Of a stretch of DNA of 36,538 bases, positions 1 to 36,305 are shown in pieces. The notes beneath the pieces are model-generated. The model was given only the letters and a program-made list of their open reading frames with translations. It was not told the origin of the DNA and made no database searches. A program made the translations under genes and the position numbers. Each line of letters begins with the position of its first letter. Within the stretch, counting starts at the first letter, position 1. The DNA comes from a virus. Lineage: Duplodnaviria; Heunggongvirae; Uroviricota; Caudoviricetes. The stretch is from IMG/VR virus record IMGVR_UViG_2654587996_000001, positions 1 to 36,538 of that record, one strand, 5' to 3'.

Positions 1-735
1 TCAACTCTCTTTCAAACCGGTTTTAACTGTCTGTGGTTTTGGGTAAGGCTGGACTTTGAATAGCTTTGTGTTGAGGCGTTTTCTGGCTCTCTTGTTCAGA
101 AACCGGATGTAACGAAACTGGCGGAATTTATGAACACTGGCTCTGTCGATATTAGCCCTCAGATGTTCACCTCGCTGTCCTCCTCGTTTGATGGTATTCC
201 TGCAAATCTCGTGATACCACTCGCCATCAAGTTCATAGAATGTTGATTCATGGCTGCCAACATAATCAAAATTGCTTGCCTGATACACGACACCAAGACA
301 GCCACAACGCTCATCTGCAAACGACTGAACCCACTGCACCTGCGGATAAAGTTGCCTGATGAGTTTGAGTGCGTAACTGATTGCCCTTGATTCGGAGTTT
401 CTCGGCATACAGTCATGCATCCATAGCCGGTTAAGCTCCATGTATTCACGGTTCTGCGTACCCGTTACGATGCGCGCTCCGCTGTTTGGATTAAGGGCAT
501 AACCCCATTGCATTACGCCAACCAGCTCCCGTTCTGAAAATATCCCCAGATGAAGGTAGGAGTTATTTACGAAACGGTGGCTGTAATGTTTATTGACGAT
601 GACCAGTCGGGCCAGCCAACAACTTATTGTCTCAACACGCAATTCACGGGAGCCATAACCAACGATATTGTCGTTATAGCGAATAAGTTCAGGCGTGCTG
701 ATGATACGGGATGTAACTTGCTTTTTGTTCCCCAC
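1..735 (-). CDS. mom: Mom-like DNA modification protein; proposed GTG start at 735 (244 aa); the frame stays open upstream to 1086
   Basis: Lies immediately downstream of and overlapping a Com-like zinc finger gene, as in Mu. GTG at 735-733 is preceded by AAGGAAA about 9 nt upstream. No ATG exists in this frame between 895 and 513. Stop TGA at 1-3. Assignment is by position, not by recognised Mom sequence. Confidence 0.5.
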
Positions 736-889
736 GACAGGATTTCCTTGTGTATGTGGGGTGCTCTGTGGCGCTCTGTGATGTGATTTGATTGAGGGTT
801 TTACAGCGCGGGCATTTGACTTCCAGATAGCTGAAACTGGCCCGTGCCAGTAGCTTATTGCAGTGTCGGCACCGTATGTTTCGATACAT
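689..889 (-). CDS. com: Com-like zinc-finger translational activator of mom
   Basis: Translation [14 protein letters not shown]...VKCPRCK has the C-x2-C...C-x2-C arrangement and CPRCK motif recalled from phage Mu Com; about 66 aa; 3' end overlaps the proposed mom start. Confidence 0.7.
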
Positions 890-938
890 GGCCGCATAAC
901 CTCCTGCTTTGTTGTTGTTGTTGATGTTTGCTTCATCA

Positions 939-963
939 AATCGATCGACAAAAACGATCGATT
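939..963. promoter_or_regulatory. Perfect 9-bp inverted repeat AATCGATCG-N7-CGATCGATT carrying two GATC sites, upstream of com-mom; a third GATC at 1026-1029
   Basis: Read directly from the sequence. Sits 50-140 bp upstream of the com start on the minus strand. In Mu the mom promoter is controlled by Dam methylation of clustered upstream GATC sites. Confidence 0.5.
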
Positions 964-1103
964 CGATTTGTTTAATTGATACAACAAATAACACGAAATG
1001 TCATTAGCGAAAATTTTATGAGGTTGATCACTAATTTTAAAAGGTGCAGTAACGCATAAGTGATGAATGATTGTACATTTGAACACCGCAAAGCAAACAA
1101 CTC

Positions 1104-1129
1104 AACTAATTAATAAAAATCAATTAGTT
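1104..1129. promoter_or_regulatory. AT-rich palindrome AACTAATT-N10-AATTAGTT in the divergent region between com and the plus-strand ORF at 1153
   Basis: Perfect 8-bp inverted repeat read from the sequence, about 25 bp upstream of the GAGAGG ribosome-binding site of ORF 1153-1455; operator-like. Confidence 0.3.
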
Positions 1130-1152
1130 ATCTGCTGTCGTGAGAGGCTGTG

Positions 1153-1455
1153 ATGAACAATCATGTAACGACGATAAATCAAAACACAATTGAAAACGCG
1201 GAAATTTATAATGATTATTTTTCCGATTATTCAGATGTCTGCAAATACAGTTCGAGTGCGGGAAAGTTCATATGCTTCAATTTTTTTATTAAATCTTATG
1301 TCTTTCCTCCTAAGGAAGAGGATGGATGTACTCCACCTCCTGAAATCAGGTTGCACCGTGTTGCCTCTGTCTCAATGATGGAGCAACAGGCTGATGAGTT
1401 ATATAGCATTCTGGGAGCGCTTCTGCACAAGGATGAGGCTAAGGTGGGTCAATGA
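1153..1455 (+). CDS. Hypothetical protein (100 aa), AT-rich
   Basis: ATG at 1153 preceded by GAGAGG at 5-nt spacing; low GC compared with the phage backbone; no recognisable motif. Confidence 0.4.
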   Translation: MNNHVTTINQNTIENAEIYNDYFSDYSDVCKYSSSAGKFICFNFFIKSYVFPPKEEDGCTPPPEIRLHRVASVSMMEQQADELYSILGALLHKDEAKVGQ

Positions 1456-1582
1456 TGCCCTGTTATGTTTCAGTTATACTCGGGGATTAAGCTGGATTGC
1501 CTGCTGTTATATTCCCGGAATACTCAATGCTATTCAGCGCTTTACATATCAGAAAAATAGCAAGGATGTTTTCATTAGAATT

Positions 1583-1608
1583 AAACCGGCAGGAGAAACT
1601 GCCGGTTT
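1583..1608. terminator. Intrinsic terminator-like hairpin between convergent small genes
   Basis: Perfect 10-bp stem AAACCGGCAG / CTGCCGGTTT with 6-nt loop; T-rich flank; begins 7 nt after the stop of the minus-strand ORF 1615-1869. Confidence 0.55.
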
Positions 1609-1614
1609 GTATTG

Positions 1615-1869
1615 TTACATCATAGTACTGTCAGTTCCGGACTGAGCCGGTTCTGGTTGTTCTGGCTGTGCGTCGGTTTTCGGCTCATTATCAGCATCAC
1701 TGGCCGCAGCAGCTGGCCCAAGAAGTTTTGCCAGCACCTCATCAACGTAAGTGTCGATTTGTGCCTCAAAATCCTTGCGGACCTGCGCTTTCAGTAATTT
1801 ATTTACTTCACCTGAATACAGCGCCTGTTTGACCAGGTCTTCAGTGACAGTGCCTTTAATCTCTGGCAT
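1615..1869 (-). CDS. Hypothetical acidic protein (84 aa)
   Basis: Strong ribosome-binding site AAGGAGG 6 nt upstream of the ATG; AT-rich; acidic Pro/Glu-rich C-terminus. Confidence 0.55.
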   Translation of the reverse strand: MPEIKGTVTEDLVKQALYSGEVNKLLKAQVRKDFEAQIDTYVDEVLAKLLGPAAAASDADNEPKTDAQPEQPEPAQSGTDSTMM

Positions 1870-1904
1870 GTATATCCTCCTTATGCGGGAATACAGCCCT
1901 GCAA

Positions 1905-2087
1905 TCAGGGCTGGGTCGGGTCTTTTGGGAGCGGGGTTGCCGTTGTTGTTTTACTGAGTTTTTCCGCTGCTGCGTCATCAATTTTACGGCGGACATAATT
2001 TCGGATAGCTTTGTAGCCACCACTCACCAGATATAACGCGCAGACCACCGAGCAGAAATATAATAAAATAAGCTGTATAAATGTCAT
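1905..2087 (-). CDS. Small membrane protein (60 aa), one N-terminal transmembrane helix then a basic tail
   Basis: Hydrophobic N-terminus IQLILLYFCSVVCALYLV; GGAG 7 nt upstream of the ATG; 35-nt spacing to the next ORF suggests co-transcription. Confidence 0.5.
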   Translation of the reverse strand: MTFIQLILLYFCSVVCALYLVSGGYKAIRNYVRRKIDDAAAEKLSKTTTATPLPKDPTQP

Positions 2088-2223
2088 TATTCATCTCCAT
2101 TATTAATATGGTGTTGACATAGTTAATACCTGTTGGTTAAAAAGGCGTCCTGCATTTTTTGCTTTGGACATAACGACTTTTGCCGCCGGTTTCCTTGTTT
2201 TCCCTTTCCAGGCGGCATTTTTT

Positions 2224-4302
2224 TTATCCTGCTGACGGGGTATTCACTTCCACCACAATGCTGTCAATCAGCACCGGATATGTCGCAGCGCTGGTGATAT
2301 CAGTCACCCGTAATTTGTCTGCCGTAAACGTGCCAACCGGAGACTGAGACAGCATGAATGGTGTCCCGTCCTTACCATCAATGACCGGCGTCACCTCAAT
2401 ACTGTTGTTACCGGCAAAACGGAAGCCCAGCGTATGCCATTCGTTATTAAATGCACCGAATGACCCCAGTTTCGTGTTTTGCGCCGTATTGCCCTTGTGG
2501 TACATCACGTTAAGGTCTGTGGCATCGCTCTGAACGTAAAACGATGCCAGCAGGTTATGACCGGCATTACCTTCCAGAGTAACCCCTTGCGGCAGGGCAG
2601 AAACCGGCCAGTACAGCGCCATCGCGTACTGATTAGCCGTAAGCGTACCATCAACCTTAAACCGGCAACTGACAAGGCCACCTTTACCCAGCAGGTCCGC
2701 ACCATTACCGGCATCATGCTCAAGGTACCAGGAGGATTTGCCTGTTTCCTTGGTCAGTTTCATGGCCTTACCACTACCTGCTCCGGCATCATCCACGATT
2801 TCAGCCTTGCCACCTCCCGCGCTCCAGCCCTGTGGTGACAGCTGACCTTCTGATTCAGATGTCCGGTAAGCAAACAGCGTGCTCATCGTCGTGGTGTCAG
2901 CCGGTGGAGTGGACGGTGTATCCGGCGATGGTGTTGATGGGGAGTCAGGTGATGGCTTCTCATCCGGTGGTGTCACGGTCTGCCCGCCCATCAGTTCAGC
3001 CGTGCGCCCTGCATGGAGCAGAATAGCGGAGGCCAGACGGTCTGAAATAATGCCCCTGCGTGCCCATGAGCTGAAATGGCTGTCACGCTGTGTCGAGACA
3101 AAACTGCCCTGAGTACGGGATGCTGCACCATAATACCCGACAGCCACAATATCCGGGTCTTCCGCCGGAGCATTTGTTGGCGTGTTTGCGCCGTTTTCAT
3201 CTGTCAGGAACGGTACAAAGAAAATATTCTGTGCTTCCTTGCCTTTGTAGCCACCGTATACTGTCTCATATTTATCGGTGCCAGCGTTTTTCCAGTAATA
3301 CGTGGTATCACCGCAAATCCACGGCACCGTGGTGGCATTTCCGCTCACACACTGTGCAGCAAGTGAGGACAGGTCAGTCCTGAACTGCTGAACCATGGCC
3401 GTGAATAAACCGTTATGCTGCTGACTGCCTGAAGCAAGGTCTGCCTCGCCCTGCATCCATACCACCGCCAGCAGCCTGTTTTTCGGGTTCTTCGCCAGCG
3501 CCGCTTTTGTCCGGCTGACCATGTCCTGATACAGGGGTTTACCGGCACCCCAGCGTGCAGCGTCAGCGGATGCGCCACTGGCCTCACTGAATGTACCGTC
3601 GGCACCGGTGGTGAATGCAGAACCACCACGACAGCAGGGCACCAGAAGTATCCCTGCATTCTGCGGGATATACGACAGCAGCTTTTTGGCAATATGCAGC
3701 CCCTGACTGACACAGCCATACTGCCCCTTATTCAGGTCCGCTTTCGGATGATTAACACCGCTCATATCCTGTACATCATGCAGACAATGGTCAGCCGGAA
3801 TCACATCATTGTATGCACAGGCGTCTCCACCCGGCGTCACTGTACTGCGGCGTGCCAGCTGTTTAATGCGCGGGTCCGGGCGGTCATAAGAGTCCGGTAA
3901 CGGAAGCCCCTCACCGTAGGCCATGCCGTTGGACTGTCCGGCAAGCACAACCACGTAGTAATACTCCGGCTCTCTGTTGCCGCCACTCACACTGCCGGAA
4001 GACCCGGCGTTATCCGGTGCATTCCAGTCCGATGGGGTGAGCGTTCCGGCCACATCCGACGTAATGGGAATGACGCCGGTCACGCCAGAGCTGGTAATTT
4101 CTGCACTGGGGGTACCGGACACAGGCATTACCCATAATGGCTCTTTCGTGCTGAAGCGGATCACACAATCTGCAAAGGTGATCCCGCCTTTATTACCCGA
4201 AGGCCGGAAAGGGCTTTCAATAAATGCCACAGTGCCACCGGCAACCTTGACTGAAAACTCTCCGGGCATGGCGGAGAGCATTTTCCACTGGGAGTCTGAC
4301 AT
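2224..4302 (-). CDS. SGNH/SASA-family esterase domain protein with Pro/Ser/Thr linker and C-terminal beta-rich domain; candidate virion-associated receptor-modifying enzyme
   Basis: Motif VVVLAGQSNGMAYG (GQSN nucleophile block of sialate O-acetylesterase-like SGNH hydrolases); linker PPDEKPSPDSPSTPSPDTPSTPPADTTT; no N-terminal signal peptide; located just past the tail fiber genes. Confidence 0.7.
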   Translation of the reverse strand: MSDSQWKMLSAMPGEFSVKVAGGTVAFIESPFRPSGNKGGITFADCVIRFSTKEPLWVMPVSGTPSAEITSSGVTGVIPITSDVAGTLTPSDWNAPDNAGSSGSVSGGNREPEYYYVVVLAGQSNGMAYGEGLPLPDSYDRPDPRIKQLARRSTVTPGGDACAYNDVIPADHCLHDVQDMSGVNHPKADLNKGQYGCVSQGLHIAKKLLSYIPQNAGILLVPCCRGGSAFTTGADGTFSEASGASADAARWGAGKPLYQDMVSRTKAALAKNPKNRLLAVVWMQGEADLASGSQQHNGLFTAMVQQFRTDLSSLAAQCVSGNATTVPWICGDTTYYWKNAGTDKYETVYGGYKGKEAQNIFFVPFLTDENGANTPTNAPAEDPDIVAVGYYGAASRTQGSFVSTQRDSHFSSWARRGIISDRLASAILLHAGRTAELMGGQTVTPPDEKPSPDSPSTPSPDTPSTPPADTTTMSTLFAYRTSESEGQLSPQGWSAGGGKAEIVDDAGAGSGKAMKLTKETGKSSWYLEHDAGNGADLLGKGGLVSCRFKVDGTLTANQYAMALYWPVSALPQGVTLEGNAGHNLLASFYVQSDATDLNVMYHKGNTAQNTKLGSFGAFNNEWHTLGFRFAGNNSIEVTPVIDGKDGTPFMLSQSPVGTFTADKLRVTDITSAATYPVLIDSIVVEVNTPSAG

Positions 4303-4555: not shown

Positions 4556-5128
4556 ATGGCGATAGTATTATTCCTGTTTTTATCATTGATTCACATGGTG
4601 ATGTTTATGCAACTGATTAATGTTAAACGATATTACCCGGAACACAAACCCTATGGTAATGATGTACAGTATTTTCAGAGTGAAGATGGTAAGGATTTCT
4701 ACGAGTCCCTGCCATTATTCACAAAAAAATATAAACTTTGCATAACACCAGACAGCGGCGTTATCTGCTCAATATCACAGGACGCCTCGGCACTGTATCC
4801 TGCGGGTTTTTCCGTGGTTGAGGCCGATGAACTCCCTGAAGGCACGGATATTTCAGGAAACTGGACGTTTGATAATGGCGTTATCTCCCGGCTTCCGGTT
4901 AACTACACCAAAAAAGCGGAAGCACAGCGCCAGTCATATCTTAATCAGGCATATGAAAAAATTAATGACTGGAGAACTGAGCTACAACTGGGCACGATCA
5001 GTGATGAAGACAGAGCAGCACTTACCCAATGGATGGCATACATCAGTCAGGTGAAGAAAATGGAACTACCCGCCATTAAAACAGAAGCTGAATTTAACGC
5101 CATTAAATGGCCTGAGCTGCCACAGTAA
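4556..5128 (+). CDS. Tail fiber assembly (chaperone) protein; real start probably internal, around 4595-4607
   Basis: C-terminal region DWRTELQLGTISDEDRAALTQWMAYISQVKKM resembles conserved Tfa/U-family C-termini. On the opposite strand from all other structural genes. Confidence 0.65.
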   Translation: MAIVLFLFLSLIHMVMFMQLINVKRYYPEHKPYGNDVQYFQSEDGKDFYESLPLFTKKYKLCITPDSGVICSISQDASALYPAGFSVVEADELPEGTDISGNWTFDNGVISRLPVNYTKKAEAQRQSYLNQAYEKINDWRTELQLGTISDEDRAALTQWMAYISQVKKMELPAIKTEAEFNAIKWPELPQ

Positions 5129-19511: not shown

Positions 19512-19573
19512 ACCGGCAGCATAAGCCGGGTATTTTTGGGGCTGGTTTTGCGGGACTTCAGAAAGTGCTGACA

Positions 19574-19582
19574 GGGGGGGGG
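19574..19582. repeat. Homopolymeric G9 tract (C9 on the coding strand) in the G-I intergenic region
   Basis: Read directly; about 65 nt upstream of the gene I start. Confidence 0.9.
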
Positions 19583-19688
19583 TGAGAAAGGCGCTTCACG
19601 CAGATTTTAAAGCCCGTTAAATACAGGTTAGAAAATCACGACACGCGCCTGAAGGGGGTAAGGTAATACGTTTGCATACCTTAAACCA

Positions 19689-27463: not shown

Positions 27464-27534
27464 TGTTACGCTGTCTCATGGTGTTCTCTGAGTCAGCGTA
27501 ACCGTGGAAAAAAGGGGGCAGGATTTGCGGAATA

Positions 27535-27957
27535 TCAGAAAAGCCGGGGCTGCGTGCGTTCCTGATGCAGGCGACGCTGGTTGCGGATAACGGAGTAAAT
27601 CTGCGTCTCTGACATCTGGTAGTGGCGGCGCAGGGTTTCAATTTTTTCGCCCTGGCTCCAGCGGGAAAAAATTTCATTATTGCGCAGTTCGGTGAAAAGG
27701 GATTCACCGACCGGGAGATAATAACCACGCCCGCCCATGTACCCGGCCTGTGCAGCCGCAACTTTACGGGCAAGCATTCCCGCCTGAGCAGGTTCAATCC
27801 CCTGACGGTGCAGTTCAGCACTGATCACATCAACCAGGTCCCGCAGCGTGCCGGGCCAGTTTTTTTTCAGCTCATCATCAGGAATGTCATCCAGACGGTC
27901 AATCAGCGCGTGCAGCTGTTCGCTGTCACCAAACATGCTCATCTGTGTTTCAGCCAT
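27535..27957 (-). CDS. Mor/C-family transcription activator
   Basis: 140 aa, positioned immediately upstream of the lysis gene as Mu C is; conserved C-terminal region IYSVIRNQRR. Confidence 0.65.
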   Translation of the reverse strand: MAETQMSMFGDSEQLHALIDRLDDIPDDELKKNWPGTLRDLVDVISAELHRQGIEPAQAGMLARKVAAAQAGYMGGRGYYLPVGESLFTELRNNEIFSRWSQGEKIETLRRHYQMSETQIYSVIRNQRRLHQERTQPRLF

Positions 27958-34217: not shown

Positions 34218-36305
34218 TCAGGCCAGCGGATCATTTTCTTTTAATTTCGCTTCCAGCAGCTGCAATCCCCGCTGGAAGTTACGCTCGTATTCGTCATCAG
34301 GTTCATCATCAACGGCAGGTCTCTGAACGGCCACCGTATTACCTACCGGGCGGTATATGTTTTCCAGCCATGGCTCCTGTGGCTTGTGCTCCAGCACGTT
34401 GACAACCTCATCCTCGGCATCACGGATTTTTTCCTCTGCGCGTTTACGCATACCTTTAAGGCGCTGCTGCTGTTTGTAGTATTCCGCGCTGACCGGGAAG
34501 GCTTCGCGTTTATTGCCGTCCCATACCGCCTCGCAAATCACACTGCCATCCAGGCGACGCACGGTAATTCGCTCAGCATCATGAATGTCATAGCTGATAA
34601 GCACCTTACGACCATGCTCGTCACGCAGCTCGGGCGCGTAGTAAATATTATTCAGCCAGCGTATTTCACAGCGTCTTACAGGGCGCTCCACCATCGGCCG
34701 GAACATATCCCGCAGCTCAACATCGGACAGCCATTCAATTTCCGTGTCCTCTTCCGCCAGGCGTTTTTTTCTGAACTCCGCCGGGCTGTAATGTTTACCG
34801 TTCGGCTTCATGGGTAATTCATCGTGCGGCCGGTTGTTGTACCACTCAACGCCGTCACGAATGGCATCAATCAGTTCAGACCAGGACGGTAAATCACGCA
34901 TCGCTGACTGCTGCCGGGCGTTCAGCCGCTTGCCCTGTTGCAGGGCACTGAATGCCGAGCGTAAATCGCGGTTGGTTTTACGTAACGTCTCGCGATCTGC
35001 ACCTTTCCCGAAATAGGTGCGGTATTTACGGGCTATGCGCATCGGTAATGTGCGGTTAAGCCGTTCGATAATGCCCCGTCCCTGCGGGTTACCGGCAATC
35101 CCGGTCGGGTGATTAATCCCCAGTCGCGGCAGTATCCCCACAATCTCCTTATCCAGGACGTCGGCGGTTTCCCCCGAGCCATTATCCGAGTAATACAGAA
35201 ACGGTTTGCCGTGATGTCGAATACCGTGCTGTATGGCACCGGCTACGGCGAAAACATTTTCAGCCAGGTCAAGGCTCCAGCCCACCACAAAGCGCGTGCC
35301 GCCGTCGATAACAAAGGTCACTTCCGGTGCAAATGGCCGCCCGTGAACCGGGTGTGCGCATTTCAGCTTCATGCCGTGACCGTCACCAATCCAGACATAA
35401 TTCACCGGCATTTTTGACCAGTCGCGGCGAGTGAACCCCTCAAGCTGGCGGTATTCACTGCCGGTAACCCGGCCTTTTTGTTTCACCACTTCCGGCAGTT
35501 TCTTCATTGCGCGGCGAATGGTGTCATAAGAGGGCATGATATCGAGCATATAAGGCTCATCAGCGTGCCGGTGCTGCCATTCAGCGACAAAATCCTCGTA
35601 AGCCTCGGTCATTGGTCGGCCGTTTGACTGGCGATACTGCGCCAGAAACTCGGGCAGCCAGTTAATATCTTCGGCTTTTATTTCCTGACGTTTACCCGGT
35701 GCCAGTAAAAGCAGGCGTTCAGCGGCGTTCTGCGCCTTGTTAAAGGCCGCAATCCAGCGTTTCAGCGTGATTTCACTCAACGCGCGGCTGTTTCCCTTTT
35801 TGGCGTTCGCCGTCTCAACCATTGCCACAATGCGCTCGTCCAGTTGTGATCGTGCCAGGCTGTTAACGAGGAACCGGATAGCCTTAGCGCAACTAAAGCC
35901 GGGTTGTTGCGCGATTTTCAGCGCCTCGCTGACGATCGCTATTCGTGCCTCTGCCACTTTACGTTGGTTTTCAGTCAGGGCATTGAGGCGTTCGACCATC
36001 AGTTGGGGTGATCCGCGATATGCCTCCACCGCATCAACCACGGCAGGTGAGCGTCTGGCCTTTGTCACCACCGGAGCCGGTGATTCATCGGCTTTTTGCG
36101 TCATCAGTTGCAGGGCGTAGCGTTCACGTAATGCCTGCTGCGTCACTTCAGGTAAACAGTCGATGCTGTATTCAAAACCTTTAGTGCCTTCCTGGCGGCG
36201 TCTGCTGGTTTCGCTGGTTGCATACTTCCTGATTGAATAGCGGACGCCTTGCTCCGTTCCCGGCATTCCCGGTAATCCAACCAGCTCTTTAACTGAAGCA
36301 AACAT
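34218..36305 (-). CDS. A: DDE transposase MuA-like
   Basis: 695 aa; catalytic-core region WIGDGHGMKL...SDNGSGE; position between ner and B. Confidence 0.85.
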   Translation of the reverse strand: MFASVKELVGLPGMPGTEQGVRYSIRKYATSETSRRRQEGTKGFEYSIDCLPEVTQQALRERYALQLMTQKADESPAPVVTKARRSPAVVDAVEAYRGSPQLMVERLNALTENQRKVAEARIAIVSEALKIAQQPGFSCAKAIRFLVNSLARSQLDERIVAMVETANAKKGNSRALSEITLKRWIAAFNKAQNAAERLLLLAPGKRQEIKAEDINWLPEFLAQYRQSNGRPMTEAYEDFVAEWQHRHADEPYMLDIMPSYDTIRRAMKKLPEVVKQKGRVTGSEYRQLEGFTRRDWSKMPVNYVWIGDGHGMKLKCAHPVHGRPFAPEVTFVIDGGTRFVVGWSLDLAENVFAVAGAIQHGIRHHGKPFLYYSDNGSGETADVLDKEIVGILPRLGINHPTGIAGNPQGRGIIERLNRTLPMRIARKYRTYFGKGADRETLRKTNRDLRSAFSALQQGKRLNARQQSAMRDLPSWSELIDAIRDGVEWYNNRPHDELPMKPNGKHYSPAEFRKKRLAEEDTEIEWLSDVELRDMFRPMVERPVRRCEIRWLNNIYYAPELRDEHGRKVLISYDIHDAERITVRRLDGSVICEAVWDGNKREAFPVSAEYYKQQQRLKGMRKRAEEKIRDAEDEVVNVLEHKPQEPWLENIYRPVGNTVAVQRPAVDDEPDDEYERNFQRGLQLLEAKLKENDPLA

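Follow-up and report, generated by a model that had tools for sequence, protein, structure and literature searches.

What controls com-mom in a Mu-like prophage whose upstream region carries a perfect palindrome with two Dam methylation sites? We addressed this question in IMG/VR virus record IMGVR_UViG_2654587996_000001, a stretch of 36,538 nucleotides that was analysed at full length and is referred to here as the window. An earlier reading of this DNA (the original prediction) had singled out the palindrome as a possible methylation-sensitive operator. We propose, with a probability of roughly 78%, a bipartite, methylation-sensitive operator of about 46 bp (989-944) for OxyR, a LysR-type regulator of the host, which controls com-mom of a Mu-like Escherichia prophage and has the palindrome as its promoter-proximal half. 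Dam/OxyR control of mom is already known, and the design is the one found at agn43 and gtr; what the window adds is probably a new member of the family, with two GATC sites instead of three and with a different position relative to the promoter.

On the + strand, positions 939-963 read AATCGATCG (939-947), ACAAAAA (948-954) and CGATCGATT (955-963), a perfect 9-bp inverted repeat with a 7-nt spacer located 50-75 nt upstream of the com ATG. The repeat, its two GATC sites and a third GATC further upstream are thus present as originally described. The features on which the argument relies are as follows.

939-963, no strand: palindrome AATCGATCG-N7-CGATCGATT, the predicted promoter-proximal OxyR-type dimer half-site, with two Dam (GATC) sites 13 bp apart

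943-946, no strand: GATC, counterpart of Mu GATC III, a predicted Dam target in the proximal half-site

956-959, no strand: GATC, counterpart of Mu GATC II, a predicted Dam target in the proximal half-site

944-958, minus strand: proximal half-site core ATCGTTTTTGTCGAT, matching 7/10 positions of ATAGnTnnnAnCTAT

959-974, no strand: spacer between the half-site cores, its first bases belonging to the palindrome arm; it holds the few substitutions and the single indel of the conserved block

975-989, minus strand: distal OxyR-type half-site ATTTGTTGTATCAAT, matching 7/10, without a GATC and with its centre 31 bp upstream from that of the proximal half-site

1026-1029, no strand: third GATC, probably outside the operator, in the spacer of the promoter-like TTTAAA-17-TAAAAT (1041-1013, minus strand)

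921-938, minus strand: stretch most likely to contain the com-mom -10, as judged from sister lineages

On its own, such a perfect inverted repeat is only a mild anomaly: with arms of at least 9 bp and loops of 3-12 nt, four distinct ones (six registers) occur in the window, and dinucleotide shuffles gave a mean of 2.0. The pattern of GATC sites stands out more. They are depleted around the palindrome: positions 1-4158 hold three (943, 956 and 1026) versus 13.8 ± 3.4 expected from dinucleotide shuffles. All three fall within the 260-bp intergenic region 890-1149, a number reached there in 3.6% of shuffles, and 943/956 is the window's only adjacent GATC pair with a 13-bp spacing. The depleted 4 kb at the right end span mom, com, an open reading frame (ORF) of unknown function, DUF826, DUF1378 and a tail-fibre gene; GATC density in the remainder of the phage is about 3.2 per kb.

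The identity of the element emerges from comparison with characterised switches. Mu Pmom has three GATC sites that OxyR binds when they are unmethylated, according to the passages of PMC3378877 and PMC4461284 that cite Boelker & Kahmann 1989 and Hattman & Sun 1997. Upstream of com, Mu record AF083977 reads ...catATAGaaaacgacGATCgaatcaattaaatcGATCggtaatacaGATCgATTATgccccaATAACcac...ttttttAAGATagtggcg...ggaggtgagATG, where GATC II and III, 13 bp apart, form AATCGATCg-gtaatac-aGATCGATT; a MAFFT alignment matches this to the window dyad, from which it differs by a single mismatch, in the innermost pair. The dyad core ATCGATCG-N7-CGATCGAT is identical in the window and in the operator of Escherichia coli agn43 (flu), whose dyad is TTATCGATCG-tttatat-CGATCGATAA and whose regulatory region in strain K-12 reads aataaaacGATCaatatctaTTATCGATCG-tttatat-CGATCGATAAgct, a perfect 10-bp inverted repeat with a 7-nt spacer. 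OxyR is a repressor at agn43, and methylation abrogates its binding (PMC2909390). Half-sites at P22 gtr are ATTGATCG-gtaacaa-CGATCAAT and ATTGATCG-cttgtat-CGATCAAa. Broadbent et al. 2010 (PMC2909390) assigned each of the 13-bp GATC pairs there to a single OxyR dimer half-site, with the consensus ATAGxTxxxAxCTAT; OxyR was found to bind half-sites in pairs and, in gel-shift assays, to lose this binding upon Dam methylation (PMC2909390).

Compared with this half-site consensus, the central 15 bp of the palindrome in the window (ATCG-N7-CGAT) have C for A and G for T, and it is these substitutions that create the GATCs. As judged from sequence, the palindrome is Mu's arrangement in perfect form, a predicted standard OxyR dimer half-site with two Dam sites. 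The original prediction had considered its packaging tighter than a simple cluster of sites; it is no departure from Mu, where GATC II and III make up the same dyad, and perfect versions of the dyad are found in agn43 and gtr. Members of the operator class have two OxyR half-sites about 31-32 (or 22) bp apart and a GATC-N9-GATC dyad inside a half-site. Both are found in the window, 55-100 nt upstream of the com ATG, in the sole intergenic region able to hold the com-mom promoter.

To locate half-sites, we scored every 15-mer against the ten specified positions of the consensus and took 21-23 or 31-33 bp as OxyR spacing. The proximal and distal half-sites proved to be the only two in the 36.5 kb that each reach at least 7/10 at such a spacing. 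Since just about 0.16% of 15-mers score 7/10, a partner at one of the 12 allowed offsets from the pre-specified dyad would arise by chance in about 2% of cases (an arithmetic estimate). A partner at the -31/-32 offset is also present in Mu (7/10, ATAGAAAACGACGAT), agn43 (8/10, ATAGAATAAAACGAT) and gtr (10/10, ATAGATAAAAACTAT), as well as, at 7-8/10, in eight further com lineages: L036, L039, L078 and L079 with a score of 7, L042, L081 and L088 with a score of 8, and the Mu-like L084. Two other com lineages have a partner of 6/10 and one has none. The partner half-sites have diverged widely in sequence and retain in common their offset and an AT...AT pattern. We also looked in the window for a third half-site some 63 bp upstream, like that of gtr, and found none. 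Half-sites of 7/10 and 8/10 are counted in the working switch of opvAB, where the 7/10 site is unprotected in the in-vitro footprint (PMC4856963).

Conservation of the element is strong. A 24-kb stretch of the window was matched, as prophages, in 275 of 5426 complete E. coli genomes, with an identity of about 94% at best and mostly 80-90%. The 52-bp block 990-939, by comparison, is at least 99% identical in 207 of the 214 E. coli records that hold it; O157:H7 strains are among those whose operator is 100% identical. The reality of the palindrome as an element is settled by this conservation of the block in a phage backbone that is mostly 80-90% identical. Retrieval by Mom, which is unbiased for the palindrome, yielded 80 viral contigs and 12 genomes. 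Within the lineage of the window the dyad is present in all 29 loci (15 distinct upstream sequences), one of which has a single arm substitution. Alignment of the 15 sequences revealed an invariant distal half-site, a dyad invariant apart from that one locus, and substitutions and one 1-nt deletion confined, within the block, to the spacer between the half-sites. The 3-4 nt immediately after the palindrome vary freely at constant length, and a 6-nt indel in a CAA repeat follows further downstream.

Upstream of com, the 13-bp GATC dyad is kept in about a dozen distinct lineages, from Escherichia and other genera, while its surroundings change; outside the lineage of the window it occurs in Edwardsiella, Symbiopectobacterium, Apirhabdus and a number of unassigned enterobacterial contigs. 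An exact-pattern scan of viral contigs found the same perfect palindrome, with another spacer and with Mu's 18/13 spacing, upstream of the distinct com gene of L036. A further lineage, in which Com begins MDSVRC (L091, L111, L113, L114, L116, L119 and L122), keeps GATC I and II of Mu 18 bp apart, with an 8/10 half-site ATAGATTATGACGAT, and has CATC exactly at the position of GATC III. The same swap to CATC has been used by experimenters to remove a Dam site while leaving the OxyR consensus undamaged.

The likeness to Mu mom, agn43 and gtr, the correctly spaced partner and the strong conservation support the earlier suggestion of a methylation-sensitive OxyR-type operator for com-mom as the probable function of the palindrome. 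The third GATC, which had been noted together with the palindrome, is probably not part of that operator: it lies within no half-site of at least 6/10 and is 70 bp from the dyad, compared with 18 bp in Mu. It is found in relatives of the L002/L069 type and is absent from those of the L003/L004 type, which keep the operator intact and have two unrelated GATCs further upstream.

We then considered where the operator lies with respect to the promoter. The com-mom promoter must fall within 890-1149, because a divergent ORF at 1150-1455 bounds the upstream region of com. All four Mu late promoters consist of cATAACCcc, then 20 nt, then the -10, and at Mu Pmom this C box lies between GATC III and the -10, hence the OxyR site is upstream of the activator site. 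Allowing up to two mismatches, we found in 880-1150 neither the Mu C box (cATAACCcc + 20 nt + -10) nor the phage's own late box, CCGCAAAnCCnGCCCC + TTAyGCT. The latter, with TTAyGCT 12-13 nt after CCGCAAAnCCnGCCCC, is present upstream of the lys and protease genes; weaker copies, CCCCAAATCCCGCCAC and CCAAATCCCGCCA, are found ahead of the Mor/C gene and a short way into the tape-measure ORF (coordinates noted for the late-box copies are 27464-27534, 19512-19688, 28027 and 13166). These copies are probably sites of the Mor/C-family activator.

The last GATC of the window is 36 nt from the AGGAGG that precedes com. In the short lineages (51-54 nt from the last GATC to com), clear -10 hexamers lie 7-9 nt past the last GATC, namely TATACT (L078, L079), TATAGT (L080), TATCAT (L036) and TAGATT (L039), so that the dyad overlaps the -35/spacer region. 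The window offers two weaker -10 candidates, a semi-conserved TGAnAAAG (935-928) and [C/T]ATCA[A/T] (926-921), which the window has as CATCAA and two sub-lineages have as TATCAT; this hexamer is 16 nt past the GATC in the window versus 17 nt in gtr. Because the length between dyad and hexamer is constant, the indel lies downstream and every recognisable -10 of the family is downstream of the dyad, we infer a -10 within 935-921, which would centre the dyad at about -28 to -37. By analogy, this would be the geometry of the repressing OxyR(BC) occupancy of gtr, in which the GATCs are at -46 and -33 (PMC2909390). The shorter distance from GATC to com and the missing C box likewise suggest a probable overlap between operator and core promoter, like that of gtr.

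Several other elements of the region were considered and rejected. CAAATCG (970-964) and TTATGC (900-895) resemble an activator box in part, with a spacing that does not fit. TTGATG-N7-CATCAA (939-921), a second inverted repeat, was discarded as an activator site because relatives do not conserve its left arm. A leaderless com mRNA, as implied by Mu-like spacing, does not agree with the well-placed AGGAGG before the ATG and has no fitting -10.

In the mechanism that we propose, one OxyR dimer would occupy the dyad ATCG-N7-CGAT within the palindrome and a second dimer would occupy ATTTGTTGTATCAAT, 31 bp upstream, at the spacing seen at Mu mom, agn43 and gtr. OxyR would bind when the GATCs of the dyad are unmethylated, and possibly also when they are hemimethylated. 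Bound OxyR would sit on the -35/spacer of a weak promoter, which the operator probably overlaps, and would bar RNA polymerase from com-mom. Upon methylation of both GATCs by the Dam of the host, OxyR could no longer bind and the promoter would be free. The repressive sign would follow from this predicted position of the transcription start.

Some observations weigh against the proposal. Half-sites of 7/10 are weak, and shuffled windows hold 1.9 such pairs on average; the score of the pair alone therefore proves little and has no genome-wide significance. Mu GATC I is missing in the window, so methylation would touch one of the two half-sites. The window's own candidate -10, CATCAA, is poor, and promoter-like matches exist upstream of the dyad: TTTAAA-17-TAAAAT (1041-1013), the single match of a sigma-70 scan, which is not conserved in relatives of the L003/L004 type, and ATGACA-17-TATCAA (1004-976), found by eye, which is conserved and has no -7 T. 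Either of them would put the operator in the early transcribed region, in the manner of agn43. Bound OxyR would be expected to repress under either arrangement, promoter-overlapping or agn43-like. Finally, the presence of Dam and OxyR in the host of the window is assumed from the E. coli relatives of the phage. E. coli has both proteins.

Could the palindrome instead serve a regulator of the phage itself? A dimeric protein, the Mor/C-family late activator, might bind it and overlap the -35 position of a promoter that has no -35 element. In Mu, Mor and C recognise sites of dyad symmetry whose centres are near -43. In the com promoter no -35 can be recognised and the -10 candidates are weak, and no other activator box is found near com, where a late promoter would need some activator. 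However, the late boxes that this phage does have at lys and protease are unlike the palindrome; an identical core acts as an operator in agn43 and a near-identical one in P22 gtr, neither of which has a Mor/C protein; and the dyad is retained where C boxes differ, for example in Mu and in L042 with cATAACCC. We therefore consider a Mor/C site very unlikely.

Opposite control by the same Dam/OxyR operator, with OxyR activating the -35-less promoter and methylation turning com-mom off, is improbable to a similar degree. OxyR does activate at gtr (site AB; PMC2909390) and at opvAB (sites B and D; PMC4856963), where it binds immediately ahead of the core promoter, and the lack of a -35 element at com would suit an activator. 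Any candidate -10, however, puts the proximal half-site at about -28 to -37, on the -35/spacer, which is the repressing configuration of gtr (PMC2909390), and in Mu and agn43 OxyR represses and expression needs methylation.

Just as improbable is a role of the palindrome as structure rather than as a protein-binding site, that is, as an RNA hairpin in a com-mom leader starting at about 1006 or 969, as a DNA cruciform or as an intrinsic terminator on the + strand. The fold is stable (-10.8 kcal/mol as DNA, z = -3.6) and dominates that of the hypothetical leader, a terminator scan lists the palindrome on the + strand with the tail CGATTTGTTT, and the promoter-like matches upstream of the dyad could supply a transcript. 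Yet only four of the nine stem pairs are G-C, the T tract of CGATTTGTTT is interrupted and no + strand gene ends there, while a search of Rfam gave no match, an IsrC-like one included, even at E up to 10. Nor do the relatives preserve pairing: arm changes are one-sided and uncompensated (C...A beside the GATCs in L041, L047 and L048), the inner pair is A...C or G...A in L039, L079, L080 and Mu, and the 13-bp stem extension of the window is lost in relatives. Moreover, since the recognisable -10s are all downstream of the dyad across lineages, the dyad would not be transcribed.

That the palindrome arose by chance from overlapping restriction-type palindromes (ATCGAT, CGATCG) and has no regulatory role is hardly credible. 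Chance alone would give the window about two perfect inverted repeats of 9 bp and about two 7/10 half-site pairs. It is, however, excluded by 100% conservation in more than 200 E. coli prophages with 10-20% backbone divergence; the dyad is kept in about a dozen lineages and several genera, and the surrounding 4 kb are depleted of GATC (3 versus 13.8 expected), with all three sites in the intergenic region.

The genetic surroundings of the operator are those of a Mu-like phage. The window is such a genome in reverse orientation, with transposase, MuB, Gam, GemA, Mor/C, endolysin and structural genes all on the minus strand. The genes and leader elements referred to are as follows.

34218-36305, minus strand: transposase

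27535-27957, minus strand: single Mor/C-family gene, between gemA and the endolysin gene

689-889, minus strand: com, 66 aa, zinc-ribbon Com (Pfam Zn_ribbon_Com, E=7.5e-13); relatives are annotated as Com family

1-738, minus strand: mom, 245 aa, GTG start (Pfam Mom, E=1e-76), 78% identical to Mu Mom

901-906, minus strand: Shine-Dalgarno sequence AGGAGG, 11 nt ahead of the com ATG

911-925, minus strand: CAA repeat CAACAACAACAACAA, 6 nt longer in the window than in all relatives

The com and mom genes overlap by 50 nt, a Mu-type trait, directly downstream of the operator region. The CAA-repeat stretch (911-925) is presumably a length-tolerant, transcribed leader of com. It has two extra units in the window compared with all 28 relatives examined, and slippage at the repeat would alter the length of the leader without a change of reading frame. 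The GTG start of mom (738) falls in a predicted stem, in which CCCCAC (760-755) pairs with GUGGGG (738-733) and the AAGGA ribosome-binding sequence of mom is inside the enclosed loop; the stem is no better than those of shuffled sequences (z = -0.9). In Mu, Com opens a translation-inhibition structure, and the predicted stem resembles such a structure.

Upstream of com, the divergent ORF on the + strand (1150-1455) encodes 101 aa without a Pfam family and lies between com and a hairpin terminator (1582-1609), beyond which are the tail-fibre genes. It is present in relatives of the E. coli M1 type; those of the O157 type have other sequence there, and their homology to the window breaks at about 990-1005, immediately upstream of the conserved operator block. 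A tail-fibre-like protein (2224-4302, minus strand) contains a SASA (sialate O-acetylesterase-like) domain and DUF6645, and the tail-fibre assembly gene (4556-5128, + strand) is next to it on the opposite strand. The window has no gin gene or invertible G segment, unlike Mu. Its position 1 is exactly the mom stop codon, with the right end of the phage (attR) outside, and at the left end of the phage it stops inside a ner-like ORF past the transposase. A Pfam scan of ten early and middle ORFs, which was not exhaustive, revealed no phage-encoded Dam.

Our results mainly confirm the Dam/OxyR control of Mu mom described in the 1980s-1990s and present it as a discrete, strongly selected module of 46-52 bp that is conserved across hundreds of Mu-like E. 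coli prophages and, beyond them, in several further genera. The GATC-N9-GATC palindrome is common to the characterised OxyR/Dam switches with GATC pairs that we compared (mom, agn43 and gtr), and is therefore usable as a search pattern. Around this one operator there are at least three promoter geometries, with the operator upstream of the C box (Mu), abutting the -10 (several lineages) or about 16 nt from a weak -10-like hexamer (the window). This suggests that the mode of repression by OxyR and the dependence on a late activator differ between com-mom lineages. An unlikely extension is that, with the C box and GATC I lost and the operator placed on the core promoter, mom of the window is not strictly a C-dependent late gene and is switched epigenetically by Dam/OxyR in lysogens. 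If so, a subpopulation of lysogens would carry the Mom adenine modification on host and prophage DNA and resist restriction. According to the gtr paper, it is not known if the expression of mom undergoes phase variation (PMC2909390).

Among known systems, Mu Pmom is the homologous locus, located upstream of com-mom as in the window. The two share the dyad AATCGATC-N9-GATCGATT with its GATCs 13 bp apart, the partner half-site 31 bp upstream and an A/T-rich ATCAATTAAA segment between the half-sites. The coordinates of the Mu OxyR footprint that we used are presumed ones, placed with the help of the sequence. The two loci differ in the third GATC, which in Mu lies 18 bp upstream inside the partner half-site, where the window reads AATT; of Mu's three-GATC 18/13-bp spacing, the window has the 13-bp pair alone. 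They also differ downstream of the dyad. In Mu, the stretch leading to com holds cAATAACCAC as the C-activator box, then 20 nt, then TAAGAT as the -10; no such box is present in the window. The last GATC is 78 nt from the com ATG in Mu versus 57 nt in the window, which places the dyad 21 nt nearer to com. The phage of the window has one gene of the Mor/C family, and Mu has two, with mor and C separate.

At agn43, besides the identical core, the partner half-site is 32 bp upstream and scores 8/10. In contrast to the window, agn43 has three GATCs, one of them in the partner half-site, its operator is downstream of the annotated transcript start (the isrC/flu 5′ end), and the controlled gene is a host gene with a heritable ON/OFF output rather than a phage gene.

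P22 gtr differs from the window in its three half-sites and four GATCs, which allow OxyR to occupy it in either an activating or a repressing way. The window, with two of each, would have no alternative site with which to lock an ON state. The likeness is nonetheless extensive: the GATC pairs of gtr are 13 bp apart, each within one palindromic OxyR half-site ATTGATCG-N7-CGATCAAT; half-sites are spaced 32 bp apart in gtr and 31 bp in the window; and the proximal GATC pair of gtr overlaps the promoter at -46/-33, with the corresponding pair of the window at about -45/-32 if CATCAA is indeed the -10. Both are phage-borne modules acting on the modification of a cell component.

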